From the NCBI GenBank assembly GCA_944363785.1, contig CALVVF010000003.1, positions 7,011 to 71,010 of the forward strand: DNA of 64,000 nt, given 5' to 3'. Below the pieces are notes generated by a model. The model searched no databases. It saw only the letters and a program-made list of their open reading frames with translations, and had not been told where the DNA came from. Source of the DNA: an uncultured Bacilli bacterium (GTDB taxonomy: Bacteria; Bacillota_I; Bacilli_A; RF39; UBA660). Positions 2,171 to 59,484 of this stretch are shown piece by piece; the stretch's first letter is position 1; every line of letters begins with the position of its first letter. The translations under genes were made by a program, and so were the position numbers.

Positions 2171-3129
2171 TCTTCCACCTTCTTTGTTATATTTGCTAAT
2201 TCTTGCCAATTGACAGGAAAGCCCATTCTTGTTAATACTTTATCCACTGTAATCGTTTTTAGATTGTATTCTAAATTTTCTAAAATATGTTTGATTTCTT
2301 CAGTTAGATTTTTAAATTCCGTTTCTGTTAATAACTGTTTAATAATTATCACAAGGGCAAAGATGTCATTTATACCTTGTACATACTCACCTTCTACCTT
2401 TTCTAGTTTTAATAACTTATGGTAGACGGTTTCCTCTAGATGTCGTTGAGTCCTATTTTCGAATACAATATCCTCATGTGCACACAAATTACGATAATTG
2501 GCTAAGATTGGTAAATAATTCTGTAGTGTCTCTGCATCGATCCCATAGACTTCAGCAATACTGTCTTGATCTTCTCGCTTTAGAACTGAATAGAGTTCAC
2601 CAACAATCCCAAAAGACAACACTTTAACTAAAACCCATAGGGGAATATAACCATAATTATTTACATAGTGCATAGTAGCTGCATGCTGAGGAGCATTTAT
2701 CCGAACCTGACGTTTCATTTTTTTTATTAAGTCATTCACTTGTCTGGATTTTTGAGGTATATGAGTGAAATTTCTTGCTTTTAGATAATCACTTTCTTTA
2801 TAACCATATTTTTTAGATAATTGGTAAGCGATAATCGATTTTATACTATTCTCAATAATTAATAAATTCTTAAAAATAATATTACGAAATGCTCGATCGA
2901 ATAAAAATAAACTATATACTTCTTCAAACGTAGTTCCTTCTATAAATCTTTTCTCATTTGCCGATTTTAGAAATAAGTGACGATAACCGTTTAGAAAAAA
3001 ATAGTTTTCTCGTAGTAAAACTCTTTTGGCATAAGTCTTATCTTCGATCTTTAAGCCTTTATATTCTAAGATCGTAATTTGCTCATCTAATGTTTTAAAA
3101 TTCTTATCAAAAGCCATACCACTCATCAC
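2167..3129 (-). CDS. Abi_2-family abortive-infection protein (AbiD/AbiF-like)
   Basis: The N-terminus TLDEQITILEYKGLKI..LLRENYFFLNGY and the later YRNLCAHEDIVFEN motif match the Abi_2 signature (Q-I-ELLK-RGL and LRN-CAH--RLWN). The stop TGA overlaps the htrA ATG, reading ATGA. Confidence 0.7.
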   Translation of the reverse strand: MMSGMAFDKNFKTLDEQITILEYKGLKIEDKTYAKRVLLRENYFFLNGYRHLFLKSANEKRFIEGTTFEEVYSLFLFDRAFRNIIFKNLLIIENSIKSIIAYQLSKKYGYKESDYLKARNFTHIPQKSRQVNDLIKKMKRQVRINAPQHAATMHYVNNYGYIPLWVLVKVLSFGIVGELYSVLKREDQDSIAEVYGIDAETLQNYLPILANYRNLCAHEDIVFENRTQRHLEETVYHKLLKLEKVEGEYVQGINDIFALVIIIKQLLTETEFKNLTEEIKHILENLEYNLKTITVDKVLTRMGFPVNWQELANITKKVEE

Positions 3130-3302
3130 CTACCATAAATTATACCACACAAATTATGTAAATTGTATGAAAAAATTGTGAAAAAATATGGGGAAAAATG
3201 GGAAAGAATAACTAAGAAATTTAGCTAGTATTTTTCATACTAATTTTGTTCTTGTTTTACATATATTATAATAAATGATATAATTTTTTTGGATGTGATG
3301 TT

Positions 3303-4283
3303 ATGGCTAGCAGTATTACCCATGCCTATTTTGCAATGGATGTTTATGATCGATTAAGTATTAAAAGTAAAGAACTATTAGTAGAACATAAAGAACTATT
3401 TAAAACCGCAGCTCAAAGTATGGATGTCTTATTTTTTTATAATCTTACCAATTTAAAAAAGGGTAAAAAGATGCGTGATTTTGGTTCTTATTTTCATCGT
3501 CATAAAAGTTATGACTTTTTTTCTACCTTAGTCAATTATATTAAATATAATCACTATCAATATCATCCCGAAGTTATTGCTTTTCTCTATGGTATGTTAA
3601 GTCACTATGTATTAGATTCAACGATACATCCTTATGTTATTTATCGAACGGGAGAATATAATAAACAGGATAAATCCACATATCGTTATAATCAATTACA
3701 TGGGGAAATGGAATCTTACTTTGACAACTATTTGGTTATGATTAGAGAGCATATGAGGCCATATAAGTTCAAGTGTCATGAATTCTGTTTCAATGTCAAT
3801 ACACTTAGTCCTGAACTTATCGAAGTAATGGATTTTACTTATCGAGAAGTATTTGGAATAGATAAATTTCATACTTATTATTTAAAAGCTATCTCTCAAA
3901 TGCGCTTTTTTTTCCGAGTATTTCGTTATGATCCAACGGGATGGAAACGATTAAGTTTTTCATTAATTGATTTAGTTTGTCCTAAAAGTTTACTTCGTAA
4001 AGCTCCCCTTTCTTATCATATGAAAATGGGAAACTATAAATGGTTTTTAAATCTAGAACATAAAAAATGGTATAATCCAACAGATAAGAGAACAAGTAGT
4101 AGTAAATCTTTATTAGAATTATATAGTGAAAGTTTAGCTAAAACAACAGAGATGATCAATGAGATCAATCAGTTCTTTTATTACGATAAGAAAATAAACT
4201 TGAAAAAAGTTTTATCTAATCGCAGTTATGTTACTGGAAAAGATTGTAGTAAAAATAAAGAATTAAAATACTTTGAGTTTTAA
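3303..4283 (+). CDS. putative zinc-dependent phospholipase C-family protein (His/Asp-rich metal-binding motifs)
   Basis: The ITHAYFAMD N-terminus plus the FGSYFHRH and HYVLDSTIHPYV motifs resemble the PLC/P1-nuclease-like metal-site pattern. This is a weak, memory-based assignment. Confidence 0.35.
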   Translation: MASSITHAYFAMDVYDRLSIKSKELLVEHKELFKTAAQSMDVLFFYNLTNLKKGKKMRDFGSYFHRHKSYDFFSTLVNYIKYNHYQYHPEVIAFLYGMLSHYVLDSTIHPYVIYRTGEYNKQDKSTYRYNQLHGEMESYFDNYLVMIREHMRPYKFKCHEFCFNVNTLSPELIEVMDFTYREVFGIDKFHTYYLKAISQMRFFFRVFRYDPTGWKRLSFSLIDLVCPKSLLRKAPLSYHMKMGNYKWFLNLEHKKWYNPTDKRTSSSKSLLELYSESLAKTTEMINEINQFFYYDKKINLKKVLSNRSYVTGKDCSKNKELKYFEF

Positions 4284-4353
4284 AGTTTTAATTCTTTTTT
4301 GTTTAATCTGTATGTTTTTTTTAAATCATCTAATACTAGTATTAGGTGATGAT

Positions 4354-5442
4354 ATGTTTTATAAATATTTAATGGTTAATGTAGAAGGTAAAGATGTTTT
4401 ATATTTATATTTAAATAATAAAGAAGAGTATGCCAGTGAATTTATTTTTCAACGTCATGAGAGGGAACCAGTTGAATTATACCGGAAGATTTCTCACTAT
4501 GTGGATAATATGGGAATTGATTTTTCTGGGAATATGATCTATGTCGTCGTTAATGATATTGTGGTAGTCTCTTTAGATTTAAGTAATTATGATAAAAGAA
4601 ATGATCGGTTAGTAGAGATCATTGGGGTTGAGAGTGGGTTAAGTAATAAGTTCATCGATTTAGATCGAAGTAGTGGTATCATCGAACGTTTAAAAATGGA
4701 TGATTATATTTTTGGAGTAGTCTCTGGGGAAATGCCCGCTGTATTTCATGATGAAACATTAAAAGCACAGGCTGTAATTGCTAGAACTTATGCTTCTAAA
4801 CGATTGAGTAAAGGTTTAAAAATCAAAGACTATAATGCAGTACAAATCTATCGTGATAAAAATTATTTAAAAGAAATTTGGGGAAATCATTATGATGAAT
4901 ATACTCAGAAAATAAAAAAGGCAATTAAAGATACTGAAAACGAGGTTCTTATGTTTGATGGAGATTATATTGATGTCTACTATCATTTATCTAGTAATGG
5001 TAAAACTGAGGATTCTAGTAATGTTTTGAAACTTGCTTATCCTTATTTAGTCAGCGTATCTAGTTTTTTTGATACTGATCGTAATTCAGTGAGTAGAAGA
5101 ATTGTACCTAACGACTATCTTAGTAAATTATTACAAGTTGAGATCACTAAAGATACTCCTGTTGAAATCTTAGTAAAAACAATTGGTCATCGAGTAAAAT
5201 ATATTAAATTTCAAGATAAAGTGTTTGATGGATTAATTTTAGCTAGAAGACTTGGATTAAACTCTAATGACTTTAGTATTAGTATTGAAGATGATTATAC
5301 AACTTTTACTACTCGTGGACATGGACATGGATTAGGTCTTAGTAAATATGGAGCTGAGGGAATGGCTAAAGCAGGCTACTCTTATCGGCAAATTTTAGAA
5401 CACTATTATCCAAATACCTATTTACAAAAAGAAGTGAAATAG
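4354..5442 (+). CDS. spoIID: SpoIID/LytB-domain protein (sporulation lytic transglycosylase-like)
   Basis: ETLKAQAVIARTYASKRL is the SpoIID/LytB signature. The track ORF starts at TTG 4273, inside the upstream gene. The ATG at 4354 has the RBS AGGTGATGAT, although the 4273 start would add a TM-like N-terminus. Confidence 0.7.
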   Translation: MFYKYLMVNVEGKDVLYLYLNNKEEYASEFIFQRHEREPVELYRKISHYVDNMGIDFSGNMIYVVVNDIVVVSLDLSNYDKRNDRLVEIIGVESGLSNKFIDLDRSSGIIERLKMDDYIFGVVSGEMPAVFHDETLKAQAVIARTYASKRLSKGLKIKDYNAVQIYRDKNYLKEIWGNHYDEYTQKIKKAIKDTENEVLMFDGDYIDVYYHLSSNGKTEDSSNVLKLAYPYLVSVSSFFDTDRNSVSRRIVPNDYLSKLLQVEITKDTPVEILVKTIGHRVKYIKFQDKVFDGLILARRLGLNSNDFSISIEDDYTTFTTRGHGHGLGLSKYGAEGMAKAGYSYRQILEHYYPNTYLQKEVK

Positions 5443-5579: not shown

Positions 5580-7463
5580 TTATTTTGAAATTACTTCACA
5601 GACTAGATTACTAATTTCAGTTGGATTTGTAATTGGAAGTCCTTCAATTAATCTAGCTTGAGCATATAATATTTTTGTATAATTTTCTAGTTCTTCTTTA
5701 TTATTTTGATATAAATCTTTTAACTTTTCAGCAATTGGGTGATTAGCATTAATTTCCATCACTGTAGTTGCTTTTACTTTTTCATCAGTTGGCATTGCAT
5801 TGATTACTTTTTCCATCTCTAAAGAAATTGCTCCTTCTGATGTTAAGCATACTGGATGGTTCTTTAGACGGTTGGTAAATCTGACATCTTGGATTTCTGT
5901 TTTTAAGGCTTCTTTCATACTTGCAAACATATCTTTAGCTTCTTCATTTTGTTTTTTCAAACTTTCTTTTTCTTCTTCAGTATCTAAATCTAGGTTATCT
6001 GTACTGACATTGACAAATTTTTTATTGTCGTATTCCGTTAATGTTTGCATAACGAATTCATCTACATAATCCGTTAGGTATAGAATTTCATAACCTTTAT
6101 CTTTTACTTTTTCTACTTGTGGAAGATCATCGATCTTATCTACAGTTTCTCCACAAGCATAATAAATTTTATCTTGGTTTTCTTTCATTCTAGAAATATA
6201 TTCTTTAAAAGTAACCATTTTCTTTTCTGTTGAAGAATAGAAAATCATTAAATCCTTTAATTTATCTTTATCTAATCCATAATTGTTGTAAATACCAAAT
6301 TTCAATTGCATACCGAAAGCTTTAAAGAATTTTTCATAATTGTCACGATCATTTTCTAGTAGATCAACTAACTCACTTTTAATTTTCTTTTCTATTGTTT
6401 TGGCAATTAATTGTAGTTTACGATCTTGTTGAAGCATTTCTCGAGAAATATTTAAAGATAAATCATCGCTATCTACTAAACCTTTTACAAAGCTAAAATA
6501 ATCAGGTAATAGATCTCCACATTTTTCCATGATCATTACTCCGTTTGCGTAAAGAGTTAAGCCTTTTTCAAATTCTTTAGAGTAATAGTCATAAGAAGCA
6601 TGACTAGGTATATAGAGTAAGGCATGGTAACTGCATTGTCCTTCAACAAAAGTATGAATGGTACGAAGTGGTTCTTCATAATCAAAGAATTTTTCTTGAT
6701 AGAAACGGTTATAATCTTCTTGTTTTAAATCCTTTTTATTTTTCTTCCAAATAGGAATCATACTGTTTAAAGTTTCTTCTTCGATATGAGACTCATATTC
6801 ATCTTTAGATCCTTCTTTTAAATGGCGATGTTCAATATCCATTTTAATTGGATAACGAATATAGTCTGAATATTTTTTGACAATTCCTTGAATACGGTAT
6901 GTCTCTAGAAACTCACTATATTTTTCTTCTTCGGTATCTTCTTTTATTTTTAGGATAATTGTAGTTCCTACTTCTTCTTTTTCACATTCTTCTATTGTAT
7001 ATCCATCTGCACCTTTAGATACCCAACAGTAGGCTTTATCACTATCTATTGATTTACTAATTACACTAACTTGTTCACTAACCATAAATGCTGAGTAGAA
7101 TCCGACACCGAATTGACCAATAATATCGATATCTTTTTTCTTTTCTGCTGTTTCTTTAAAAGCAAGTGATCCACTTTGGGCGATGGTACCTAGGTTATTT
7201 TCTAATTCTTCTAAGGTCATACCACAACCATTATCACTGATTGAAAGTTCTCTCTTTTCTTTATCAAGAGCTAACTTTATTTCTAAAGAATCTCTTTTTA
7301 CTTTGATCTTTTTATCTGTTAAAGATCGATAATATAATTTATCAATCGCATCACTAGCATTAGATATTAATTCTCGTAAGAAAATTTCTTTATTTGTATA
7401 AATCGAATGAATCATTAAATCTAAAAGTTTCTTGGATTCCGCTTTAAATTGTTTCTTTTTCAT
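5580..7463 (-). CDS. htpG: molecular chaperone HtpG (Hsp90)
   Basis: The IFLRELISNASDAIDKL ATPase motif is present, the protein is 627 aa, and it is colinear with HtpG. Confidence 0.95.
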   Translation of the reverse strand: MKKKQFKAESKKLLDLMIHSIYTNKEIFLRELISNASDAIDKLYYRSLTDKKIKVKRDSLEIKLALDKEKRELSISDNGCGMTLEELENNLGTIAQSGSLAFKETAEKKKDIDIIGQFGVGFYSAFMVSEQVSVISKSIDSDKAYCWVSKGADGYTIEECEKEEVGTTIILKIKEDTEEEKYSEFLETYRIQGIVKKYSDYIRYPIKMDIEHRHLKEGSKDEYESHIEEETLNSMIPIWKKNKKDLKQEDYNRFYQEKFFDYEEPLRTIHTFVEGQCSYHALLYIPSHASYDYYSKEFEKGLTLYANGVMIMEKCGDLLPDYFSFVKGLVDSDDLSLNISREMLQQDRKLQLIAKTIEKKIKSELVDLLENDRDNYEKFFKAFGMQLKFGIYNNYGLDKDKLKDLMIFYSSTEKKMVTFKEYISRMKENQDKIYYACGETVDKIDDLPQVEKVKDKGYEILYLTDYVDEFVMQTLTEYDNKKFVNVSTDNLDLDTEEEKESLKKQNEEAKDMFASMKEALKTEIQDVRFTNRLKNHPVCLTSEGAISLEMEKVINAMPTDEKVKATTVMEINANHPIAEKLKDLYQNNKEELENYTKILYAQARLIEGLPITNPTEISNLVCEVISK

Positions 7464-7517
7464 TTCTATTCCCTCTTTCTTATTTTCAATTCGATTGGTT
7501 TTATCTTACTACTCATA

Positions 7518-7544
7518 TTAGCAAATGTCAATATAGAGTGCTAA
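7518..7544 (-). promoter_or_regulatory. CIRCE-like inverted repeat (TTAGCACTC-N9-ATTTGCTAA) overlapping the htpG promoter
   Basis: On the minus strand the site reads TTAGCACTCTATATTGACATTTGCTAA. A TTGACA -35 lies inside the spacer, followed 17 nt later by TAAGAT. Confidence 0.6.
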
Positions 7545-7637
7545 AAAAATAGAAATAATTTCTTCGCTTCGTTATTATCTATCATTTTTATCTAATTCGT
7601 TTATTAACAAAAGAAATTTACTTTTACAGTATAAATA

Positions 7638-8312
7638 CTAATCCATAGTATGATAATATTCAATTACACTATTGGTAATAATTTTAGCTAATTGTTCTTG
7701 GTATTCATCTGTTTGTAATAAATAACGTTCATTGGCATTGGACATGAAACCACATTCAATTAATACACCTAAAACTGTAGTATTTTTATACATATAAAGA
7801 TCTGTTTTCTTTAAAGATCTTTTCGTTTTTAGTTCTGTTTTAAAATTTTTCATTAATATTTCCCCAAGTACTTTATTCTGGGGATTGATTTCATTGTAAA
7901 GTACTTCAGCCCCATTCCAACTAGGATTACGGTAGTGATTAATGTGAATAGATAGATACATTTCTGCATGATATTTCTTATACATCAATATGCGACGATA
8001 GAGATCTCCCCGCTTTTTTCTATCATCCCATTCACTAGATAAATCCGTATCTGTTTCTCTTGTCATATAGACAATTGCCCCTTTTTCGCTAAGCTTATTT
8101 CTTAGCTTTTTGGATATCTCTAAAGTTATATCTTTTTCCAGTATTTTTCCATACATCGTTCCAGGATCTCTGCCTCCATGTCCAGGATCTACAAATATTA
8201 TTTTTCCTAATAAGGGTAATTCTTCACTTATCGCACTAGCTTTGGGATAAAAACCGAGAAGAAGTACTAAAATTAAGGTTAGAATTGCTGCAAAAACTAA
8301 TCTTTTCTTCAT
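7638..8312 (-). CDS. N-acetylmuramoyl-L-alanine amidase (Amidase_3, CwlD-like) with signal peptide
   Basis: IFVDPGHGGRDPGT is the Amidase_3 zinc motif, and the N-terminus is a hydrophobic signal peptide. Confidence 0.8.
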   Translation of the reverse strand: MKKRLVFAAILTLILVLLLGFYPKASAISEELPLLGKIIFVDPGHGGRDPGTMYGKILEKDITLEISKKLRNKLSEKGAIVYMTRETDTDLSSEWDDRKKRGDLYRRILMYKKYHAEMYLSIHINHYRNPSWNGAEVLYNEINPQNKVLGEILMKNFKTELKTKRSLKKTDLYMYKNTTVLGVLIECGFMSNANERYLLQTDEYQEQLAKIITNSVIEYYHTMD

Positions 8313-8518
8313 CTTCTAGATCACCTAATAAAGTATATGTTTTTTTATTTAAAGTAAGATAATCTTTTTTTTATCAATAGCTATACGTGAATTTGTTTAT
8401 TAAAGATTACCATTAATCAAAATTATGGTTTTATAGTTTTAGCAGCAAATACCTATTTTATATGAACTACCTTTCTTGGATTTTTCTATCATTTATCTTA
8501 TACTATCTATTCTCTATA

Positions 8519-8578
8519 TTTTTTCTATTTTTTCTTATTTTCATCCTTTAACTAAGCAAATTCCTAGTATATAAAAAA
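8519..8578. repeat. about 60-bp repeat, copy 1 (near-identical to 39890-39940)
   Basis: The two copies share TTTTCTATTTTTTCTT(A/G)TTTTCA(T/G)CCTTTAACTAAGCAAATTCCTAGTATATAAAAAA with only two mismatches. Confidence 0.8.
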
Positions 8579-8624
8579 GTAACATACCTTTTTGGATATG
8601 CTACTTTGAATTATACATTGAATT

Positions 8625-8873
8625 TTAATCTCCACCAAAAATATCAAATATCTCTCCTAGAAAAGACTCTCTTTTTCTTCCACCTTCTCGATAATTATCT
8701 TTGTCTTTCTTACTTTTTTGTGGAGTTGTTTCTTCTCTTTCTTCATGGTTCATTAGCTTTTCTAATTCACCACGATCTAACCAAATTCCTCTACATTCTG
8801 GGCAATAGTCAATTTCAACACCACGTTTTTCAGACATTAATAATGTTACATCTTTACATACTGGACATTTCAT
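8625..8873 (-). CDS. zinc-ribbon (zf-TFIIB-like) domain protein
   Basis: It has paired CPxC motifs (MKCPVCK..DYCPECRGIWLD). The start is set at the ATG 8873, which has the RBS GAGGAGG; the track ORF had a 20-aa extension. Confidence 0.65.
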   Translation of the reverse strand: MKCPVCKDVTLLMSEKRGVEIDYCPECRGIWLDRGELEKLMNHEEREETTPQKSKKDKDNYREGGRKRESFLGEIFDIFGGD

Positions 8874-9089
8874 ATTTTTCCTCCTCTGTTGTATTATATC
8901 ATATTCTTTATTTTTAAGTAATTTTCTTTCCAATCTTCTATCATTTTTTTCCTATTCATTCTAAATTATAAACTATCTTTCTAATAAGTAGGTATCTACT
9001 AAAAAGGAGAACAACTTTTAATATTCGTTTTTCGCATAAAAACAAGTATGCATGATTGGCATACTATAGAATATTGAATGGTGATAATG

Positions 9090-9323
9090 ATGCAAAGACT
9101 TCGTGATTTACGGGAAGATAAAGACCTAAAACAAAAAGATTTAGCTAATTTTTTACACTGTTCGCAAACTACTTATTCTAGATATGAGAATGGTAAACTT
9201 AGTGTACCAATCGATGTATTAAAAAAGTTGGCTACCTTTTATCATGTTAGTATTGATTACCTAACTGAATTTACTGACGTTAAGAAACCTTATGCTAGAA
9301 AGAATGTCGATAAAGATATTTAA
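9090..9323 (+). CDS. XRE-family HTH transcriptional regulator, paralog A
   Basis: It has an HTH_3 domain (LRDLREDKDLKQKDLA..SQTTYSRYENG) and the RBS GGTGAT. Its promoter and leader are duplicated ahead of paralog B. Confidence 0.8.
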   Translation: MQRLRDLREDKDLKQKDLANFLHCSQTTYSRYENGKLSVPIDVLKKLATFYHVSIDYLTEFTDVKKPYARKNVDKDI

Positions 9324-9331
9324 TTATATCT

Positions 9332-9538
9332 TTATTTTTTTATACTTAATTCTTCTTCTAGTATTTGATTTAATTTTTCATAGTAATAGAATAGTAATTT
9401 TTCCATTTTAAGCAAATACTGTTCATCTTTTTTCTTCGAGAGATAGAAGCGTTTCTGATATATTTTCAGCTTTATCTCTTTTATTTTTTCTTCTAATGGG
9501 CAAATAACGTATTTCATATATAATGTGGCATATTTCAT
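9332..9538 (-). CDS. hypothetical small protein (68 aa), divergent from XRE paralog B
   Basis: The ATG at 9538 has the RBS AGGGGGAAAA. The product is Lys/Glu-rich with no recognisable domain. Confidence 0.35.
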   Translation of the reverse strand: MKYATLYMKYVICPLEEKIKEIKLKIYQKRFYLSKKKDEQYLLKMEKLLFYYYEKLNQILEEELSIKK

Positions 9539-9630
9539 AGTTTTCCCCCTATTCAATTTTATTTTATGCTTATTTGGCATATATGTCAATATGCGACATT
9601 GGTATATTATAGAATGAAAATGGTGATATT

Positions 9631-12160: not shown

Positions 12161-12192
12161 AGAGCTACTAAACAGTTTAGTAGCTCTTTTAT
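12161..12192. terminator. bidirectional terminator between XRE-C and the convergent DUF1848-like gene
   Basis: AGAGCTACTAAAC-AG-TTTAGTAGCTCT is followed by TTTATAC. Confidence 0.65.
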
Positions 12193-13079
12193 ACTTTTTC
12201 CTTTATGATATCCTCAGGAGTTAAACAACCAGTCAGTAAACTGGAAGTTGGATCATGTTGGTTTATGTTTTTTAATACTTGGCTTTCATCATAATTTGCA
12301 TAGCAGTAACGACAAAAATGGTGACAAATATTATAACAGCCAATATCGACCATATCAATACAGTTACAGTTTTCTCTTGTTTTATTGGGCTTATATTTCT
12401 TTTGATTATGAAGTAAATTTTGAATATTTTTTTCAGATGTGCATGGTATTTTTTCAAAACCAAACTTTTCTAAATCTATATTTTCTGCACAAGTAGAAAT
12501 CATAAGATGATATTTCTTGGCAGTTTTACCCATAAAGGAAGCCAATTCTTCTATTTTTTCTTTGGTTAGCGCTTCCATGTTTAATATTTTTCTATTTTTT
12601 AGGGTATTTCTTTTTAGATCAATAAAACTGATAATTATACGATTTGTATAGTCACTTAATTCGTTACATAGACGTTCAAACATTTTTTTGTGATATTCAA
12701 TATTATATTTTTGACTGATAAAGATTGGATCATAACGAATAATTACTCTGTCTTTACCAATTATCTGGGAGATCTTCTTAACAATTTCGATTGTTTTTCT
12801 TTTCTCTGGAACGTATGGTTCTATGTCTTTCAAATATGGAGTTATAGTGACATGAAGAATATAAGGGTATGGAATATCATTCATTCGTTTATATAATGGT
12901 TCTGGATTTTTGGTGCAGAATACGATCGCTTCTATGTGATCTTTATCCAGAATAATTCCACTTACTTGTTTGGGATAAAAAGGATTTCTAACATCGATAT
13001 ACCCTGCTTTTAAACGATCACAAAACCAATCCATGTAAAAAGCAACTATATCACATCTTTCACTTACACTTAATATCAT
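12189..13079 (-). CDS. DUF1848-like protein with C-terminal Cys-rich cluster
   Basis: The protein is 296 aa with a C-terminal CNCIDMVDIGCYNICHHFCRYCYAN. The family call is from memory only. The RBS GAGGTAG is present. Confidence 0.4.
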   Translation of the reverse strand: MILSVSERCDIVAFYMDWFCDRLKAGYIDVRNPFYPKQVSGIILDKDHIEAIVFCTKNPEPLYKRMNDIPYPYILHVTITPYLKDIEPYVPEKRKTIEIVKKISQIIGKDRVIIRYDPIFISQKYNIEYHKKMFERLCNELSDYTNRIIISFIDLKRNTLKNRKILNMEALTKEKIEELASFMGKTAKKYHLMISTCAENIDLEKFGFEKIPCTSEKNIQNLLHNQKKYKPNKTRENCNCIDMVDIGCYNICHHFCRYCYANYDESQVLKNINQHDPTSSLLTGCLTPEDIIKEKV

Positions 13080-14326: not shown

Positions 14327-15058
14327 TTAATACCATACTTTCTTTAAATATAACCCTGCTGCAGGAGCAGTTTTAACCGCTCTTTGACGACTTTTCGCTT
14401 GTAATAAGACATTTACATCCTCTACTTCTTTTTTACCACTACCAATCGCTAATAATAGCCCTACCATGTTTCTTACTTGATATTTCATAAAGCCATCGGC
14501 TTGAAAATGAATTTCGATGATCTTTCCTTTTTGATTAAGCGACGTTTTATAAATCGTCCTCGTCTTATTTTCACGAGTATCTTCACTTGAGACAAAAGAG
14601 GTAAAGTCATGAGTCCCTTCAAATAGTTTTAGTGCTTTCTTCATTTCTTCTACTTTTAATTCTCGATTGTATTGATAGACGTAATTTCTTTCTAATGGAT
14701 TATATTCTCCTATATTAATTCTATAGACATATTCTTTCTTCTTCGCTAAAAAACGTGCATGGAAATCACTACTTACTTTCTTTACACTGATGATATGGAT
14801 ATCTGATGGTAAATTAGAGTTTAATCCTCTTTTTATCTTATCTACTGGTATTTCGATATCTAAATCAAAATGAGCTACTTGCGCTAAAGCATGTACTCCT
14901 TTATCTGTACGTCCAGATGATGTGATTCCTGTTCTTTGTTTTCTATTTAAATAACTAACGGCATCTTCTATACATTCTTGAACGGTTCTAAGTCCCGGTT
15001 GAATCTGATAACCATTAAAATTAGTTCCATCATAGGAAAAAATAATTTTATATCTCAT
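14327..15058 (-). CDS. truA: tRNA pseudouridine(38-40) synthase TruA
   Basis: The motifs SYDGTNFNGYQ and RTDKGVHA are present. Confidence 0.9.
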   Translation of the reverse strand: MRYKIIFSYDGTNFNGYQIQPGLRTVQECIEDAVSYLNRKQRTGITSSGRTDKGVHALAQVAHFDLDIEIPVDKIKRGLNSNLPSDIHIISVKKVSSDFHARFLAKKKEYVYRINIGEYNPLERNYVYQYNRELKVEEMKKALKLFEGTHDFTSFVSSEDTRENKTRTIYKTSLNQKGKIIEIHFQADGFMKYQVRNMVGLLLAIGSGKKEVEDVNVLLQAKSRQRAVKTAPAAGLYLKKVWY

Positions 15059-15059
15059 T

Positions 15060-15719
15060 TTATCCTCCGTAAATTATCATAAATACAAGTACCGCAATAT
15101 GAAATAAAAGATAGTTCGTATCCCACTTTTCCCAAGTTGGTTTTTCAATATAAGTTCGTTTACTTGTATAATTATAGAATCTAAGTTGGTTAATTTCCAT
15201 TAGATCACGAATTTCATGTTTAGTCTTTGCATAAGCTTTCTTCAATGAAAAACGAATATAAAAGAAATCTTTTTCAATTGCATAATCTTCTCGTAAATTA
15301 TCAAGAAGTCGCATATTCTTTTTTAAATAACGGAAGAAATAGATGATATAAAGAATATGGTAAGTAATTTTTTTACTTTGAAATTTATATAAGGTTACTT
15401 CTAATATATACCGTAGTTCTGAAGAATCCGTTACTTTCTTAATTAACATGATATATTCCATAAAGATAATGAATTTAGTTATCCCCATAAACTGTGGATA
15501 AAAAGTAGTTAAAATAGAAAGAAGTACTCCAAATATCCCCACTTTGGAAATAAATTTAAATTCTAAAGATAAGAAGCATAAAACAACACTAATCAATACA
15601 ATTAAAGCTGAAGAATGTAGAAATAGTAAAGAGACAATAACTAAAAGTGATGAGATTAGTTTACTAATAATATTTACTTCATAAAGAAGAGAATCTTTCT
15701 TAAACATGTTTATACACAT
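15060..15719 (-). CDS. ecfT: putative ECF-transporter transmembrane component EcfT (divergent, short)
   Basis: It is a polytopic membrane protein in the conserved ecfA1-ecfA2-ecfT-truA position. It lacks the usual Ala-Arg-Gly coupling motifs. Confidence 0.45.
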   Translation of the reverse strand: MCINMFKKDSLLYEVNIISKLISSLLVIVSLLFLHSSALIVLISVVLCFLSLEFKFISKVGIFGVLLSILTTFYPQFMGITKFIIFMEYIMLIKKVTDSSELRYILEVTLYKFQSKKITYHILYIIYFFRYLKKNMRLLDNLREDYAIEKDFFYIRFSLKKAYAKTKHEIRDLMEINQLRFYNYTSKRTYIEKPTWEKWDTNYLLFHIAVLVFMIIYGG

Positions 15720-16509
15720 CCTTTATTAAGTCCCTAATATCTTTATGAAAAGATAGTTTTACATTTTTTTCTCGAGCTTTAGCTGTAAAAGCAATTAGAT
15801 CAGGAATTTCTATATCGTTATATTCTAGAAAGTCAACATCTTGATATATTTTTACTGTCTCATCAGCTGCTATTACTCTTGTCTTTTTTATGATTACTAA
15901 ATCATCTGTTAATTCATATAAAATATTACTATCATTACTAACTATTAAAATTGTCTTTTGATAACGTTCTTTTAATAATTTAATTAATTTGATTAGTTTC
16001 TTTTTATTTGTATAGTCTAATTCAACAAATGGTTCATCAAAGATGACGATATTAGGATTGTATAATAGACTTATCGCTACTTGAATTAGTTTTTGTTCTC
16101 CTGTTGATAATTTAAAAATTTCTTTTTCTAGATAGCTTTCGTTTAATCCTACAATTTGAAGAGAATCTTTCATTTTTTTTATGATATTTTTACTCTTATA
16201 GTTTAGACGCCCCACTAAAAATTCCATTTCTTCTTTTACTGTAGCTGTAAAAAATTGTTCCTCTGGATTTTGTCTAATTAAACATACAGTTCTTCTTAAC
16301 TCAATTAAATTATCATCATTAATTTCTTTACTTCCGATTCTGATTTCTCCATAACTAGGGAAAGCTACAGAATTAATTAATTCGATTAATAAAGTTTTAT
16401 TATCTCCAGTTATTCCTGTAATTCTATTATTTCTGATCTTTAGATTGACTTTTTCTAGAATTTTTCTATTTTTATAACGGTATCCTACATTTTTGAAAAT
16501 TATTTCCAT
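15700..16509 (-). CDS. ecfA2: ECF-type ABC ATPase EcfA2 with degenerate catalytic motifs
   Basis: The ABC fold is present, but Walker A is GITGDNKT rather than GxxGxGKT, the signature is LSTGEQ, Walker B is IVIFDEPF, and no H-loop His is visible. Confidence 0.7.
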   Translation of the reverse strand: MEIIFKNVGYRYKNRKILEKVNLKIRNNRITGITGDNKTLLIELINSVAFPSYGEIRIGSKEINDDNLIELRRTVCLIRQNPEEQFFTATVKEEMEFLVGRLNYKSKNIIKKMKDSLQIVGLNESYLEKEIFKLSTGEQKLIQVAISLLYNPNIVIFDEPFVELDYTNKKKLIKLIKLLKERYQKTILIVSNDSNILYELTDDLVIIKKTRVIAADETVKIYQDVDFLEYNDIEIPDLIAFTAKAREKNVKLSFHKDIRDLIKDVYKHV

Positions 16510-17318
16510 AATGTATTCACCATCCTATCCATATCTGTAATCTCATCATCTAATAATTCATAGAATTCTAATTTTAGAGATAAATCAATCATAAACGGAA
16601 GTTCTAAGCCAATACGATTTAATATTTTTTCTTCTCGTAAAATACTTTTTGGTTTTCCTTCCATGATAATTTCGCCATTATTTAATACATAAGTATAATC
16701 ACTCGATATGATTTCATTTAAATTTGTGGTAGTTAGAATCACAGTTAACTTTTCTTTTTCAATTTTTTCCTTTAAAATCTTCTGGATTTTTTCTTTCGTT
16801 TTTTTATTCATCATAGAAAATGCATTATCTAATAATAAAACTTTAGGTTCATGTAGGAGGGCAATCGCAATCAATAGTTCTTGTTTTTCAGAATTAGTTA
16901 AATCTTCAATTTTTCGATCTAACAATTTTGTGATCCCGAATTCTTTAGCTATTTGAAGAATTTTTTCTTCGATTTGGGGAATAGGGGTATTTAAATTTTC
17001 TAAAGGGAAGGCCATTTCTTTGTAAACATTATCAAATAAGAATTTATTATCTACACCAGAAAATACCACCCCAAAAAATCTAGAATTATCGTGAATTCTA
17101 GCATGGTTTACATAAGCATATCCAGCAACTATTGATTCTTTACTGTTTAGAATACCACATATTAGTTTGATCAATGTTGTTTTACCACTTTTGTTATTAC
17201 CTATGATGGTGATGAATTGTCCTTCTTCTATTTGTAGCGATAATCCACGGAATAACGGTTTTTCTGGATAGCTGAATGTAAGATTGTTAATTTCTAATAT
17301 CTTAGACATTAGCCCCAC
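16500..17318 (-). CDS. ecfA1: ECF-type ABC ATPase EcfA1 with degenerate catalytic motifs
   Basis: It is colinear with B. subtilis EcfA (IIGNNKSGKTTL; C-terminal RIGLELPF). The Q-loop Q is S, LSGGQ is LTNSEKQ, Walker B is LLLDNAF (DE changed to DN), and the H-loop H is N. Confidence 0.75.
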   Translation of the reverse strand: MGLMSKILEINNLTFSYPEKPLFRGLSLQIEEGQFITIIGNNKSGKTTLIKLICGILNSKESIVAGYAYVNHARIHDNSRFFGVVFSGVDNKFLFDNVYKEMAFPLENLNTPIPQIEEKILQIAKEFGITKLLDRKIEDLTNSEKQELLIAIALLHEPKVLLLDNAFSMMNKKTKEKIQKILKEKIEKEKLTVILTTTNLNEIISSDYTYVLNNGEIIMEGKPKSILREEKILNRIGLELPFMIDLSLKLEFYELLDDEITDMDRMVNTLWK

Positions 17319-17489
17319 CTCAATCGCCTTACTATTATACTAAATATGCATTAAAAATTCAAGAAAAATTACTATTCCTGTTTTCTTTCTATTTTTAGTT
17401 TAAATAATCCCTTTTTTATTGATATAACTTTCTAGTATATAAAAATACTTACCATATAACCATAAGTTTTGGTAAGTATTTAGTATAAA

Positions 17490-18248
17490 CTATTTATTTT
17501 TCTTTTTCTTTTGAATACGATAAGCAAAAGCCATTAATTGTTTATCCGATAAGAATCTTCCAAAAAATTTTACACATTTCATTTTGAAACCTGGAATAAT
17601 CAACATTTTGTTCTTTAGCATACTATCGATTGCATATTTAGCAACGAATTCTGCCGGTTGCGGTTTAACGGAAAAAGATACACCCGCAACTTGATTAAAA
17701 TTGGTATCACCGACTGGTCCTGGACATAGACAAGAAATGTGGACATTGGATTTTTCTTGTTTTAATTCATAGTAAATTGCTTCAGTCAAATGTAATACAT
17801 AAGCCTTTGTACTATAATAAGTGGCCATTAATGGACCTGGTTGAAAAGCTGCTGATGAGGCAACATTAAGAATATACCCTTTGTTCTTTTTTTTCATATC
17901 CTTCAAAAACATTTTAGTTAACATATGTACTGTTTTTATATTTAGATCAATCATCTCTAATTCTGTAGTTAGTTCTGTCTCAGTAAAAGTACCAAAAGCA
18001 CCAAAACCAGCATTATTAATTAAAATATCGATATTTTCATTCTTTGTTAGGACATAAAGGGATTTAATGTTTGACTCTAACATCAAGTCCATTACAATAA
18101 TTTTTGGTTTTTTGTTCAATGTAGCCGCTAGTTGTTCTAATTTTTCTTTATCTCTGGCAACAATAATCAACTCATACCCTAAGTGATCTAAATACTTTGC
18201 CATTTCTCTGCCAATTCCCGAAGATGCTCCTGTAACTAATGCCTTCAT
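17490..18248 (-). CDS. SDR-family oxidoreductase
   Basis: The TGASSGIG Rossmann motif is present and the protein is 252 aa. Confidence 0.85.
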   Translation of the reverse strand: MKALVTGASSGIGREMAKYLDHLGYELIIVARDKEKLEQLAATLNKKPKIIVMDLMLESNIKSLYVLTKNENIDILINNAGFGAFGTFTETELTTELEMIDLNIKTVHMLTKMFLKDMKKKNKGYILNVASSAAFQPGPLMATYYSTKAYVLHLTEAIYYELKQEKSNVHISCLCPGPVGDTNFNQVAGVSFSVKPQPAEFVAKYAIDSMLKNKMLIIPGFKMKCVKFFGRFLSDKQLMAFAYRIQKKKKNK

Positions 18249-37593: not shown

Positions 37594-37630
37594 AAGAAAA
37601 GGTGTAGCTTTATAGGTTACACCTTTTATT
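37594..37630. terminator. bidirectional hairpin between GNAT (+) and spo0A (-)
   Basis: AAAGGTGTA-N11-TACACCTTT. Confidence 0.5.
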
Positions 37631-38399
37631 TACAGTAATCTTTTTGAAATTCCAATCGTAGTTTGTCAGCGACAGTAACAATGAATTCGGAATTGGTTGG
37701 TTTGGCTTTATCAATATCGACACTATGGCCAAATATCTCTTCCATTAAATCCCAATCCCCACGATTCCAACTCACCTCGATCGCATGACGAATGGCTCTT
37801 TCGACCCGAGAAACGGTCGTATTAAATTTTTTCGCAATATCTGGATATAATTCCTTGGTAATGCCACCAATTACTTCTGGTCGCTCATAGAGAATAGAAA
37901 TTCCTTCTCTGATATATTGATATCCCTTTATATGGGATGGTATTCCTAATTCATGTAATATTTTAGTAATCGAAATCTGTAAGTTATTATGGTAAATATC
38001 GATTGAAGCATTGCTGTAGGTTTTACTATCGGTACAATCTTCTATTCTTCGTTCTAGATCAGATAATTCAAACGGCTTTAAGATGAAATAATTAATTCCA
38101 TACTCAGATACTCTTCTAATCATCTCTTGTGCATTATAAGATGTTAGTACAATTACCTTCTTATCGATCTGTTCTTTTCTCATACTCTCTAGGATAGAGA
38201 GTCCATCTTTTTTCGGCATAATCAAGTCTAAGATGATGACATCATACTCGTTTTGCCTTGTTTTAATTAATTCTAAACCTCTTTCTCCATCATTTGCTTC
38301 TAATACTAATTCGATATTAGCGTGATCTTTAAAGTACTCCTTAATCATGCTTACTAGGTCGACATTATCATCGATCATCAGTACTCTGACTTTATTCAT
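37626..38399 (-). CDS. spo0A: sporulation master regulator Spo0A (receiver plus Spo0A_C)
   Basis: The receiver has [12 protein letters not shown]. The C-terminus [58 protein letters not shown] is diagnostic of Spo0A. Confidence 0.9.
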
Positions 38400-38556: not shown

Positions 38557-38700
38557 GTCCCAGTCGTTGCCTCCTGGGCTTTCTGCTTCATAGATAAAGT
38601 AACCTTTATTCTCCACAGACTTAACATCCGATAGTCGCTACCGTAGTTTTTTGTTCTTATTTGTTTTCTATTTTTTCTATATGAATTCTTTCATATACAT
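38557..38700 (-). ncRNA. candidate TnpB-associated omega-RNA (reRNA) scaffold derived from the IS right end
   Basis: This is a GC-rich segment in an AT-rich genome. It has hairpins, including GCCCAGGAGGCAACGACTGGGAC, and sits at and just beyond the tnpB 3' end, ahead of a terminator. Confidence 0.3.
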
Positions 38701-39816
38701 CTTTATTCCTTCAAATAATATATTCATACTAGCATTAATATCTCTATCATGATAACTTCCACATTCTGGACATAGCCAATTTCTAACTGATAAATCTTTT
38801 ACTTTCTCATTTTTATACCCGCATCTACTACATTCCTGACTACTCGGATAATAACTATCTATCTGAATGTATCGTTTTCCATAATACTTAGCTTTATATT
38901 CTAATATACGACATATCTCAGATAAACTGACATCAGTTAGATATTTAGAAAACTTCTTTTCTTCGATCATCTCTTTTGCCTTTAATGTTTCACTTACCAC
39001 AATATCATTTTCTAATACTAGTTTTTTCGTTATTTGATGAATAAAATGTTTTCTCGCATTCTTTAACTTCTGAAATAAAATGGCTAACTTTCTCTTCGTT
39101 TTATAGTAATTACTACTTCCTTTTTCTCTCCTGGATAATTCTCTTTGTTTCCTTTTTATTCTTTTTTCATATTTTTCTATGATTTTCTCATTCTTTACCT
39201 TTTCACCATCACTTGTAATCACAACATCTTTTATTCCTAAATCAATTCCTACTATAGTTTTAGGAATAATTTTTGGCACGATATGATTTACCTCTACTAA
39301 TACACTAGCATAGTACTTACCACTTGAATTCTCGCTAATCGTCGCATTAATTATTCTTCCAGGTAAAGTTTCTAAATTCCTATATCCTCTAATCTTTACT
39401 TCTTTTAATTTAGGAAGAATAATCACTTTTCTTTTTAAATCTACTCTAATATTTTCATACCTTTTTTCTTTATAATTATTCGTAATATAATTCGTTCGAT
39501 AACTTCTTTTAGAACTATACTTTCCTTTAAATTTTGGATAATTTGTTTGTTTATGAAAATAACGTTTAAATGCATCATCTAAATCAAATAAACTACATCT
39601 TAAACTACAAGAGTCCACTTCCTTTAAAAATGGATATTCTGAATATAAATTAGGTAAATCTTTAATCGTATCAAAACAAGTTGTATTTTCTTTTTTTCTT
39701 TTTTCAAGATAGTAATTATAAACTAGTCTTGTACAGCCAAATGTTTTTTGTATCATAATGATTTGTTTATCATTTGGATAAAGACGAAATTGGTAACTTT
39801 TATACATCATACTCAT
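38677..39816 (-). CDS. tnpB: IS605-family TnpB (OrfB) RNA-guided endonuclease, lone
   Basis: The N-terminal OrfB helix-turn-helix region is present (SYQFRLYPNDKQ). RuvC-I is GIDLGIKDV. The zinc ribbon is CSRCGYKN..CPECGSYHDRD. RuvC-III is DINASMNI. There is no adjacent tnpA. Confidence 0.85.
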   Translation of the reverse strand: MSMMYKSYQFRLYPNDKQIIMIQKTFGCTRLVYNYYLEKRKKENTTCFDTIKDLPNLYSEYPFLKEVDSCSLRCSLFDLDDAFKRYFHKQTNYPKFKGKYSSKRSYRTNYITNNYKEKRYENIRVDLKRKVIILPKLKEVKIRGYRNLETLPGRIINATISENSSGKYYASVLVEVNHIVPKIIPKTIVGIDLGIKDVVITSDGEKVKNEKIIEKYEKRIKRKQRELSRREKGSSNYYKTKRKLAILFQKLKNARKHFIHQITKKLVLENDIVVSETLKAKEMIEEKKFSKYLTDVSLSEICRILEYKAKYYGKRYIQIDSYYPSSQECSRCGYKNEKVKDLSVRNWLCPECGSYHDRDINASMNILFEGIKMYMKEFI

Positions 39817-51100: not shown

Positions 51101-51748
51101 TTGGTGATGATGATGGCTATACTTGAATACGATACTATTAAAAGTCTTTGTAATCCTACTAATCAGCTGGGTAGTGGTAAAGAGGTCGATGTTTACCATT
51201 ATCAGGATAAAGTGATTAAACTATTTCATCAAGAGCGGAAAACTACTCTACCTCGAATTTCTGATCAAGGTTTAATCGCTTTATCGAATGTGACACTAAA
51301 TTGTTTTTTAACCCCTGAGGATGTAATTGTTCAAGATGAAGAGATTGTCGGTTATACAGAAGATTTTATAGAAGAGAAAGATATTCAAATAGAAAATATC
51401 CCTTATGATGAAATAAAAGCGGATATTGAAACATTAAGTGAACAGGGATTTGTCTTAGAAGATATATTTTATAATTACTTGTTTACTGCAGATAAAATGG
51501 TCTTTAATGATCTTACTTGTTGTCGATATATTCATACTGATAATTCTTTTTTAAAGGAAAGAATTTTGAAGAAGAATATGGATACAATAAATATTTTTTT
51601 GATTGGTTTAACTAAGTTTGATGCTTTCCGTAAGGGAGAAAAACACGAATACACGAAAATGTTCTTGGCTAATGATTACCGACTTAATCATTGTCCAGAT
51701 TGTTTCTATGGAGATGTTTTGTCTCAGGAAAAAAGAACCAAATTTTGA
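51101..51748 (+). CDS. atypical protein-kinase-like protein, probably catalytically degenerate (paralog of 58750-59484)
   Basis: The Gly-loop and Lys are LGSGKEVDVY..VIKLF. The catalytic-loop position reads FNDLTCCRY, with the Asn replaced, and there is no DFG. Confidence 0.4.
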   Translation: MVMMMAILEYDTIKSLCNPTNQLGSGKEVDVYHYQDKVIKLFHQERKTTLPRISDQGLIALSNVTLNCFLTPEDVIVQDEEIVGYTEDFIEEKDIQIENIPYDEIKADIETLSEQGFVLEDIFYNYLFTADKMVFNDLTCCRYIHTDNSFLKERILKKNMDTINIFLIGLTKFDAFRKGEKHEYTKMFLANDYRLNHCPDCFYGDVLSQEKRTKF

Positions 51749-58749: not shown

Positions 58750-59484
58750 TTATAATCTCTTATTGATTATTTTTTGACTGTAATCATCTAAATTTTCTTC
58801 CATACTAAGGTTTTTTTCTAAATAAAGGAATAAATTATGTTGAGTATTTAATAAGTCATATCTCATTTTTCGAAAAATTCCCGTTATTTCTTTTTCACTT
58901 AAATTATGTTGGACTCCATAATACTTTATTCTAGGAAATAGTATATGATATAAGAAAAATTCACAAAATTTCCTGTTGTTAGCTGTCTCTGTATTTATAT
59001 TGGCGTGATAATAGTCTCCAAAATCTATTAAACACATTTCTTCTTCATTACTAATATAATTGGATTCTCGTAAATCATCGATTGCGATTTTTTCTTTTCC
59101 TAAAACAGAAAAATCAGCTTGTAAATATGAACACTCTGTTAATAATTTCTCTTTTGAATACGTATATACTGAACCCTGAACTTTTTCTTTAAATTCTGTA
59201 AGATAGCCTATATTTTTGTGATCTGTATATTCATATAATAGTTCAGTCGGTGTTATAATTCGATTTAATTTTATTGTTTGTAGTTGCTTTAGTATCTCTT
59301 CTTCTGCTACTTTCTTTCGTGGAACTTTGTAATATATTTTTAATGCTTGATCAAGAAAACGATATACTCTACCTTCTTCTCCTTGATCAACAAAGGGTAG
59401 CAGACTTCCATGATAAAAAACATTATCTTCTTCTTCGATAAATATTTTCCCAGTTTCTGATATAATTTTTCGCAAACATACCAC
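58750..59484 (-). CDS. atypical protein-kinase-like protein with intact catalytic motifs
   Basis: The Gly-loop and Lys are GEEGRVYRF..ALKIY. The catalytic loop is IDDLRESNYI (compare HRDLKPEN), followed by CLIDFGD as the DFG. The track start is a GTG, so the true start is uncertain. Confidence 0.5.
   Translation of the reverse strand: MVCLRKIISETGKIFIEEEDNVFYHGSLLPFVDQGEEGRVYRFLDQALKIYYKVPRKKVAEEEILKQLQTIKLNRIITPTELLYEYTDHKNIGYLTEFKEKVQGSVYTYSKEKLLTECSYLQADFSVLGKEKIAIDDLRESNYISNEEEMCLIDFGDYYHANINTETANNRKFCEFFLYHILFPRIKYYGVQHNLSEKEITGIFRKMRYDLLNTQHNLFLYLEKNLSMEENLDDYSQKIINKRL

Follow-up and report, generated by a model that had tools for sequence, protein, structure and literature searches.

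Conserved degeneration of both ATP sites in an ECF-type transporter module of uncultured gut Bacilli

Energy-coupling factor (ECF) modules are regarded as obligate ATP-hydrolyzing motors and are pursued as antibiotic targets. What, then, might such a module be when the catalytic motifs of both its ATPases depart from consensus? The case considered here lies in a 64-kb stretch of contig CALVVF010000003.1 from an uncultured Bacilli bacterium (the window; coordinates are positions within it unless a fetched locus is named), where three consecutive genes resemble ecfA1, ecfA2 and ecfT; we refer to their products as A1 and A2, the two ATP-binding cassette (ABC) ATPases, and T, the membrane protein. 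A prediction made from the sequence alone (the original prediction) had described them as an ECF energizing module retained in its conserved position, and as either decaying or repurposed into a non-hydrolytic or asymmetric complex. The analyses presented here point, with somewhat better than even confidence, to a selectively maintained ECF derivative, composed of true ecfA1-ecfA2-ecfT orthologues, that would bind ATP without being competent to hydrolyze it. The three genes and the downstream gene that defines their slot are the following:

16500-17309, minus strand: ecfA1-like gene (A1), 269 aa (268-269 aa in relatives); the open reading frame (ORF) extends to a GTG at 17318.
15700-16509, minus strand: ecfA2-like gene (A2), 269 aa, overlapping A1 by 10 nt.
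15060-15707, minus strand: ecfT-like gene (T), highly diverged and shortened, 215 aa, overlapping A2 by 8 nt; the ORF extends to an ATG at 15719.
14327-15058, minus strand: truA, directly downstream of T, defining the conserved ecf slot (ORF map and synteny).

A1 and A2 are both ABC ATPases by Pfam (PF00005), and their best NCBIfam models are those of the ECF ATPases: TIGR04520 (ECF_ATPase_1) for A1 (191 bits, E = 2e-56, residues 9-271) and TIGR04521 (ECF_ATPase_2) for A2 (171 bits, E = 3e-50, residues 3-253). Both miss the curated equivalog cut-offs, reaching about half of them (191 vs. 315 bits and 171 vs. 330 bits, respectively). In HMMER alignments to known structures, A1 aligns over its full length, C-terminal domain included, to the L. 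delbrueckii EcfA1 (8bms_A/5jsz_A; E = 1.6e-41), and A2 aligns to EcfA2 (4mki_B, E = 5e-27, and 4huq_A). The A1 alignment reaches the last residue of 8bms_A, with GLELPF and LWK conserved, as expected for an EcfA-type C-terminal domain. Along the minus strand, the window reads rpoA-rplQ, a haloacid dehalogenase (HAD)-like gene, a short-chain dehydrogenase/reductase (SDR) gene, A1-A2-T, truA, rplM and rpsI. The full order rplQ-ecfA1-ecfA2-ecfT-truA-rplM-rpsI matches that of C. difficile, B. subtilis and L. fermentum, and the ecfA1-ecfA2-ecfT-truA core is common to the E. faecalis, Aerococcus and Monoglobus loci, the insertion of an SDR gene, sometimes together with a HAD gene, after rplQ being a peculiarity of the clade. 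Family matches, structure alignments and synteny thus bear out the original assignment to an ECF energizing module in its conserved position, for genes that public records name only 'ABC transporter ATP-binding protein' or 'hypothetical protein'.

The catalytic motif columns were concordant between the HMMER structure alignments and a MAFFT alignment with six canonical modules (C. difficile, B. subtilis, Monoglobus, E. faecalis, L. fermentum and Aerococcus). In these alignments, departures from the ABC consensus fall in five motifs of A1 and three of A2:

17175-17201, minus strand: A1 Walker A, GNNKSGKTT (canonical GHNGSGKST), Lys and Thr retained; G, SGK and TT near-invariant in the clade.
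17040-17069, minus strand: A1 Q-loop/Q-helix, VVFSGVDNKF (canonical VFQNPDNQF), Gln to Ser; variable in the clade (65th entropy percentile).
16881-16901, minus strand: A1 signature, LTNSEKQ (canonical LSGGQKQ); LTNSEKQ in 72 of the aligned clusters.
16806-16838, minus strand: A1 Walker B/D-loop, LLLDNAFSMMN, catalytic Glu to Asn and D-loop Asp to Asn (alignments).
16719-16733, minus strand: A1 H-loop, TTTNL, His to Asn (alignments).
16503-16616, minus strand: A1 C-terminal domain, RIGLELPF...MVNTLWK, the EcfA-type dimerization region; LWK invariant, domain kept in relatives without T.
16393-16416, minus strand: A2 Walker A, GITGDNKT (canonical G.TGSGKS), Gly before Lys to Asn, Ser to Asp (alignments).
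16249-16278, minus strand: A2 Q-loop/Q-helix, IRQNPEEQFF, Gln and the acidic Q-helix motif retained (alignments).
16090-16110, minus strand: A2 signature, LSTGEQK (canonical LSGGQ) (alignments).
16015-16047, minus strand: A2 Walker B/D-loop, VIFDEPFVELD, Asp-Glu and D-loop Asp retained; the most conserved A2 segment (4th entropy percentile).
15928-15942, minus strand: A2 H-loop, VSNDS, His to Asn (alignments).
15703-15747, minus strand: A2 C-terminal tail, HKDIRDLIKDVYKHV, nearly invariant and clade-specific (conservation counts).

All the motif substitutions originally listed for A1 and A2 stay in place in both alignments, which do not restore canonical residues at these positions. The UvrA encoded in the window is canonical (two GVSGSGKS, two LSGGE and two H-loop-like segments, VVEH and IIEH), and the changes in A1 and A2 are therefore specific to these genes, as had been proposed, rather than an artefact of composition. 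To each ATP site of an ABC protein, one subunit contributes its Walker A and B motifs, Q-loop and H-loop, and its partner contributes the signature; given this architecture, changes spread over A1 and A2 render both composite sites non-consensus. Other positions have been held: the A-loop Tyr of A1 is near-invariant across the clade, and in the A2 Walker A the Lys is conserved next to an altered pair that varies among relatives (D/E/Q/K and N/Y). The A2 tail (D..DLIKDVYKHV), found in 108-116 of 116 clusters and kept in relatives without T, is absent from canonical EcfA2.

Comparison with relatives establishes that this pattern is widespread and stable. Proteins of the same size that carry these substitutions make up more than 100 clusters, the best 120 clusters ranging from 91% to 54% identity for A1 and from 94% to 42% for A2, with LTNSEKQ, LLLDN and TTNLE recurring in A1 and GITG[DE][NY]K[TS], LS[ST]GE, FDEP..LD and SND in A2. 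Metagenome-assembled genomes of 17 species-level uncultured gut Bacilli/'Tenericutes' present an identical gene order with the 10-nt and 8-nt overlaps preserved, and every relative examined has intact ORFs. The block is also that of 'Ca. Scybalousia (now Alloscybalousia) intestinigallinarum', at 91-94% identity, and the host of the window belongs to the uncultured, apparently spore-forming gut Bacilli close to this taxon. The original prediction had named, as a finding that would refute it, that these substitutions are typical of a functional ECF clade in the lineage, and as regards their distribution (more than 100 clusters, 17 genomes) they are indeed clade-wide. Approximate Nei-Gojobori ratios of nonsynonymous to synonymous substitution (dN/dS) against the closest relatives are 0.03-0.04 for A1, 0.02 for A2 and 0.06-0.08 for T, and in the same comparison the neighboring truA and SDR genes gave 0.06-0.10 and 0.03. 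These two genes served as controls; the rpoA comparison, whose values for distant pairs made no sense, was disregarded as an artefact of alignment or of high-scoring segment pairs. On sliding-window entropy, the Walker A, signature and Walker B/D-loop segments of A1 and A2 sit between the 4th and 17th percentiles, whereas the Q-loop/Q-helix segments vary freely (64th-65th percentile). The conserved altered motifs, near-invariant tails and low dN/dS therefore reveal constraints on A1 and A2 that have changed, not been lost.

The third gene required a less direct approach. Direct searches with T returned no Pfam or NCBIfam match at E ≤ 1 and no PDB match by either phmmer or profile; T is thus not a member of Pfam CbiQ (PF02361) by direct search, and it forms a conserved family of its own. 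Aligning this family by hhalign with canonical EcfT (one and seven sequences) produced collinear, statistically weak matches (E = 0.42 and 0.011, respectively). A profile search against 1.84 billion representatives identified 79 family members, and its most distant full-length matches (E = 3e-7 to 4e-4) are Pfam CbiQ proteins: seven such matches score 22-82 bits on PF02361, six of them above the 25-bit gathering score, and one CbiQ-positive match (P0343) occupies the same SDR-A1-A2-T-truA slot. A joint alignment arranges these sequences in a collinear continuum from canonical EcfT, through intermediates, to the window T. With hhalign too weak to carry the point, it is the billion-sequence search and its CbiQ-positive intermediates that indicate a remote, transitive homology of T to EcfT. 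The AlphaFold2 model of T (predicted local distance difference test 75, predicted template modeling score 0.54) is compatible with this assignment, with a predicted EcfT-like helix order comprising four helices in the hydrophobic N-terminal part (residues 7-94), a short helix (102-108), two long helices (112-142 and 148-178) and a C-terminal one (197-214). In a Foldseek search of the PDB with this model, ranks 1-5 and 7 are EcfT/CbiQ chains (8bms_C, probability 0.96; 7nnu_D, 5x3x_Q and 6zg3_D), at E-values (0.03-1) that make the match supportive only.

In canonical modules, X-Arg-X motifs seat coupling helix 2 (CH2) in the groove of EcfA and CH3 in that of EcfA' (PMC10368641), and these arginines contact aspartates of the ATPases (PMC4820897). 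In T, the corresponding positions, at the C-terminal ends of CH2 and CH3, are:

15279-15296, minus strand: T CH2 X-Arg-X anchor position, LREDYA (canonical AQxARG), Arg replaced by an invariant Tyr142 (joint alignment).
15141-15185, minus strand: T CH3 anchor, LRFYNYTSKRTYIEK (canonical AMEARGYxGGxxRTKYR), Arg176 invariant (joint alignment).

Across the clade, the CH2 ARG has become (E/D)-Y-(G/A), and the CH3 anchor reads N-x-L-R-F-Y-N-Y-x-x-x-R-T-Y, with L-R-F at its core. Only the CH3 Arg is therefore left of the two anchors. The earlier statement that T lacks the Ala-Arg-Gly coupling motifs stands for the strict motif and for CH2, and fails for the invariant arginine of CH3. Anchors and grooves covary: loss of the CH2 Arg goes with a degenerate, variable A1 Q-helix, and retention of the CH3 Arg with a retained A2 Q-helix motif, QNPEEQFF. 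In T, the coupling helices are also polar and basic, each carrying a net charge of about +5, and their mean Kyte-Doolittle hydropathy differs markedly from that of canonical EcfT (-0.48 vs. +0.19 in CH2; -0.62 vs. +0.62 in CH3). By this sequence-level proxy, the hydrophobic platform on which S-components dock is not present in T.

Other lineages place the window module within a graded series. At its mild end, the L033 locus (2947-5343) is canonical in its P-loops, its A1 signature and its A2 H-loop, and has a CbiQ-positive T of 235 aa. Its degeneration is confined to one composite site (Gln to Glu and His to Asn in A1, signature LSNGE in A2), and among the degenerate modules it alone presents a fully consensus composite site. 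In the clade of the window, both sites are degenerate and T measures 215 aa. The L034 and L035 branches degrade other positions, with the P-loop Lys changed to Arg or the whole P-loop lost, and motif losses in sister lineages also include a Walker B Asp to Glu change. At the far end of the series, truA starts 6-8 nt after A1-A2, with no T in the slot, at the following fetched loci:

L025 (GCA_947627405.1), 7225-9556, strand not stated: A1-A2 locus without T.
L027, 7204-9536, strand not stated: A1-A2 locus without T.
L028, 6054-8386, strand not stated: A1-A2 locus without T.
L031, 4225-6538, strand not stated: A1-A2 locus without T.

No T-like ORF was found in these lineages within the available 4-8 kb of flank (less downstream of L031). 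Every T-like gene looked up in relatives sat in the slot, which argues for T having been lost from these lineages rather than relocated. Their ATPase genes are intact and under purifying selection (dN/dS of 0.085 for A2 and 0.35 for A1, vs. 0.14 for truA and 0.29 for SDR), and the P-loop of A1, the signature and D-loop of A2 and the C-terminal tail of each protein have been preserved in them. Neighbor-joining trees of A1+A2 and of truA, rough, lacking support values and used for orientation only, recover one Bacilli group in which the forms without T are nested inside the degenerate clade.

Set against the group II ECF module (L. delbrueckii 5JSZ/8BMS; B. subtilis ecfA-ecfAB-ecfT), the window module has the same genes in the same order, in the same rplQ-truA slot and with overlapping frames; its ATPases share the ABC fold and the EcfA-type C-terminal domain, its CH3 Arg anchor and A2 Q-helix motif are kept, and T resembles EcfT in its hydrophobic N-terminal helix bundle, long coupling-type helices and C-terminal helix. 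It differs in that both ATP sites are non-consensus and model scores reach about half the cut-offs, and in a T that is about 50 aa shorter, undetectable by Pfam CbiQ, with Tyr for the CH2 Arg and polar, basic coupling helices. One of its sites (site 1) follows the degenerate site of TmrAB, TM287/288, TAP1/2 and CFTR: A1 retains the P-loop Lys/Thr and lacks the Walker B Glu and H-loop His, and the partner signature is altered, a pattern compatible with stable ATP binding without hydrolysis. These transporters, however, always keep one consensus site that drives the cycle, whereas here the other site is also non-consensus (A2 P-loop and H-loop, A1 LTNSE); it is the one-site pattern of L033 that matches heterodimeric ABC exporters exactly. 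The originally proposed repurposing thus fares differently in its two forms: a non-hydrolytic complex is the best reading of the window module, and an asymmetric one, with a single consensus site, fits L033 instead. In the L. delbrueckii ECF transporter, a single Glu to Gln substitution in EcfA or EcfA' ends both ATPase activity and folate transport (PMC10368641), and the S-component is expelled by ATP binding, not hydrolysis (PMC10368641). The engineered EcfA E169Q/EcfA' E171Q mutant (8BMS), which has likewise lost the catalytic carboxylate, binds ATP, closes and expels the S-component without hydrolysis or transport; its signatures, H-loops and P-loops are canonical and it does not support growth, while the natural variant carries more changes and is maintained. 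The Listeria FmnA, annotated as the T subunit of a FAD-export ECF system, similarly pairs a diverged T with EcfA/EcfA' in a non-import function; FmnA, however, is a recognizable CbiQ paralogue working with canonical ATPases, whereas here T is the sole copy in the slot and the ATPases are degenerate. In the literature library that was searched, no account of ECF ATPases with natural degeneration came to light.

These comparisons suggest how a module that holds ATP without hydrolyzing it could work. Site 1 would consist of the P-loop Lys/Thr, A-loop Tyr and Walker B Asp of A1 with the LSxGE and D-loop of A2 in trans. Because these A1 residues are kept and the trans elements of A2 are conserved, it would be able to hold Mg-ATP, and because A1 lacks the catalytic Glu, the H-loop His and the Q-loop Gln, it would do so without hydrolysis, acting as a permanent 'glue' or as a sensor, much as the degenerate site does in heterodimeric ABC transporters. 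Site 2, formed by the A2 P-loop (in which Ser-Gly is replaced by an acidic residue and Asn/Tyr) together with LTNSE, the signature of A1, probably supports no productive nucleotide binding, given its freely varying P-loop positions, the LTNSE in trans and the absence of an H-loop His. The A1-A2 dimer, held by its conserved EcfA-type C-terminal domains and glued by ATP, would be constitutively assembled, and the shortened T would tether it to the membrane through the CH3 Arg seated in the groove of the A2 Q-helix. Since the hydrophobic platform is lost and relatives without T exist, the retained role is most likely centered on the A1-A2 pseudo-ATPase pair, as scaffold, sensor or regulator, and not on ATP-powered expulsion and re-docking of S-components.

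Several points weigh against this preferred reading of an ATP-binding, non-hydrolyzing derivative. A2 keeps its Walker B Asp-Glu, Q-loop Gln and D-loop, making residual hydrolysis at site 2 possible, and Asn is able to take up the left-handed conformation of the P-loop Gly. A transport role is likewise possible, the S-component census covering the window and the fetched loci: a Pfam and transmembrane-segment screen found none among the ORFs of the 64-kb window, none was found in the fetched loci, and an Rfam scan of the window detected no vitamin riboswitch. The lineages without T were inspected within a few kb of the slot. Finally, dS to the closest relatives is 0.7-2.0, near saturation, so that the dN/dS ratios are approximate, though pN is far below pS throughout.

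Hydrolysis at site 2 leads to a rather unlikely alternative, in which the module remains an ATP-driven energizer with unorthodox chemistry, hydrolyzing slowly, most plausibly at A2, with Asn replacing the H-loop His. The near-invariance of the A2 Walker B DE, Q-loop Gln and D-loop is what this alternative would predict, the P-loop Lys is conserved in both ATPases, and the gene arrangement and conservation are like those of a working operon. Yet the signature facing the A2 site in trans is LTNSE, the A2 P-loop has Asp/Glu and Asn/Tyr, varying freely in the clade, where Ser-Gly contact the phosphates, the H-loop His is lost in both ATPases, A1 has Asn at the very position where a single Glu to Gln change kills ATPase and transport in canonical modules, and sister lineages degrade the motifs further (P-loop Lys to Arg, P-loop loss, Walker B Asp to Glu). 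Transport could also dispense with hydrolysis, and this second possibility, unlikely as well though deserving a little more credit, regards the module as an ATP-independent docking platform, permanently 'open' or closing weakly, on which S-components would dock for a short time, topple, release their substrate to the cytoplasm and dissociate thermally, net uptake being driven by metabolic trapping. Module-free transport has been reported for solitary S-components such as BioY, and vitamin auxotrophy is probable in small uncultured gut Bacilli. T is under strong purifying selection (0.06-0.08) and keeps the predicted EcfT helix layout and one Arg anchor, and in canonical modules the energy of docking itself destroys the substrate site and releases the substrate, ATP serving only to expel the S-component (PMC4820897, PMC10368641). 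Against such a platform, the hydrophobic surface of the coupling helices has been replaced by polar, strongly basic helices, the selected function of A1-A2 does not always depend on T, as relatives with the pair and no T in the slot attest, and no S-component gene was seen in the window or the fetched clade loci.

Two further explanations dispense with a functional ECF derivative altogether. Were the genes decaying remnants, pseudogenes in the making, the loss of catalytic residues from both ATPases, the shortened T, the sub-cut-off model scores and the relatives without T would all follow. This is very improbable given ORFs that are intact, and overlaps that persist, across 17 species and over 100 clusters, dN/dS values of 0.02-0.08 that equal those of housekeeping neighbors, and substituted motifs that rank among the most conserved segments alongside invariant C-terminal tails; the decay that the original prediction had envisaged is contradicted by the same observations. 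It is more improbable still that the genes are not ECF-derived, but another ABC or defense ATPase pair with an unrelated membrane protein, their substitutions being alignment artefacts. T does lack a direct Pfam, NCBIfam or PDB sequence match, and weak matches to AAA_21, mad3 and AriA exist. A PADLOC scan, however, yielded ABC matches that were partial and generic, none exceeding 60 bits, with no match for T and no defense-system membership, against 191 and 171 bits for ECF_ATPase_1 and ECF_ATPase_2; moreover, motif columns agree between HMMER and MAFFT, synteny is exact, and profile search and Foldseek tie T to CbiQ. Selection and conservation data in the one case, and family matches and synteny in the other, effectively exclude decay and misassignment.

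As to gene starts, relatives and gene callers favor the inner ones, ATG 17309 for A1 and ATG 15707 for T, giving products of 269, 269 and 215 aa; the 219 aa first given for T correspond to the ORF running to the ATG at 15719. The GTG at 17318 of the longest A1 ORF falls inside GAGGTG, which is Shine-Dalgarno-like, and the T stop codon lies 1 nt before the truA start. One further element was noted upstream of A1:

17334-17362, minus strand: promoter-like TTGAAT-17-TATAAT between the SDR gene and A1, about 25 nt ahead of the A1 start (consensus match only).

The window is AT-rich (about 30% GC), and such promoter-like sites are as numerous in shuffles of the region as in the real sequence. A hairpin followed by a T-run, read directly from the sequence, lies further upstream of this site. 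The SDR (adh_short) gene upstream of A1 (17490-18248, minus strand) is adjacent to A1 or a few genes from it in every relative with upstream flank, intermediate lineages and those without T included, and was not seen at the canonical Firmicutes loci fetched. Right after rpsI lies a gene for a DUF1848 protein (290 bits; 12189-13079, minus strand), where canonical Firmicutes loci have other genes. Several PLSDB 'plasmid' records (L018, L019, L021, L022 and L024) also carry the ribosomal-protein/rpoA/ecf/truA cluster, for instance a 96-kb record from C. difficile and a 129-kb one from B. subtilis, and look like misassigned chromosomal fragments.

Elsewhere in the window, Spo0A (37626-38399, minus strand), SpoIID (4273-5442, plus strand) and a CwlD-like Amidase_3 protein (7638-8312, minus strand) are encoded, and their presence suggests that this 'Tenericutes-like' lineage of uncultured gut bacteria forms endospores. 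An HtrA-like Trypsin_2+PDZ protease gene is overlapped at its start by a gene for an Abi_2 protein (Abi-like, PF07751; 1040-3129, minus strand); since the two also lie side by side in the distant relative L025 (11686-13718), they have the appearance of a conserved gene pair, not of a mobile defense island. The window further contains an IS605-family OrfB/TnpB gene (HTH_OrfB_IS605, OrfB_IS605 and a Cas12f1-like TNB domain; 38677-39816, minus strand), two ORFs for soluble proteins of 215 and 244 aa with no Pfam match and non-ATG starts, TTG and GTG (51101-51748, plus strand; 58750-59484, minus strand), and, as its sole Rfam family, an S10-Clostridia leader (RF03136; 33259-33356, minus strand; 40.9 bits).

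For annotation, these findings serve as a warning, as metabolic reconstructions of these gut Bacilli would overlook the module or else assign vitamin import to it in error. More speculatively, the EcfA1-EcfA2 heterodimer might have a second cellular role, requiring neither ATP hydrolysis nor transport, and in this lineage nothing but that role would be left. We consider this reading a long shot; under it, the pair would survive as an ATP-binding pseudo-ATPase with a vestigial T as membrane tether in this genome and no T in sister lineages. If true, a second role of EcfA1-EcfA2 could explain its near-universal linkage to rplQ, truA and rplM-rpsI in Firmicutes. The lineage constitutes a natural experiment on which parts of an ECF module are needed beyond the power stroke, and the series from one degenerate site to two and then to the loss of T offers a means of studying the conversion of an ABC motor into a pseudo-enzyme.

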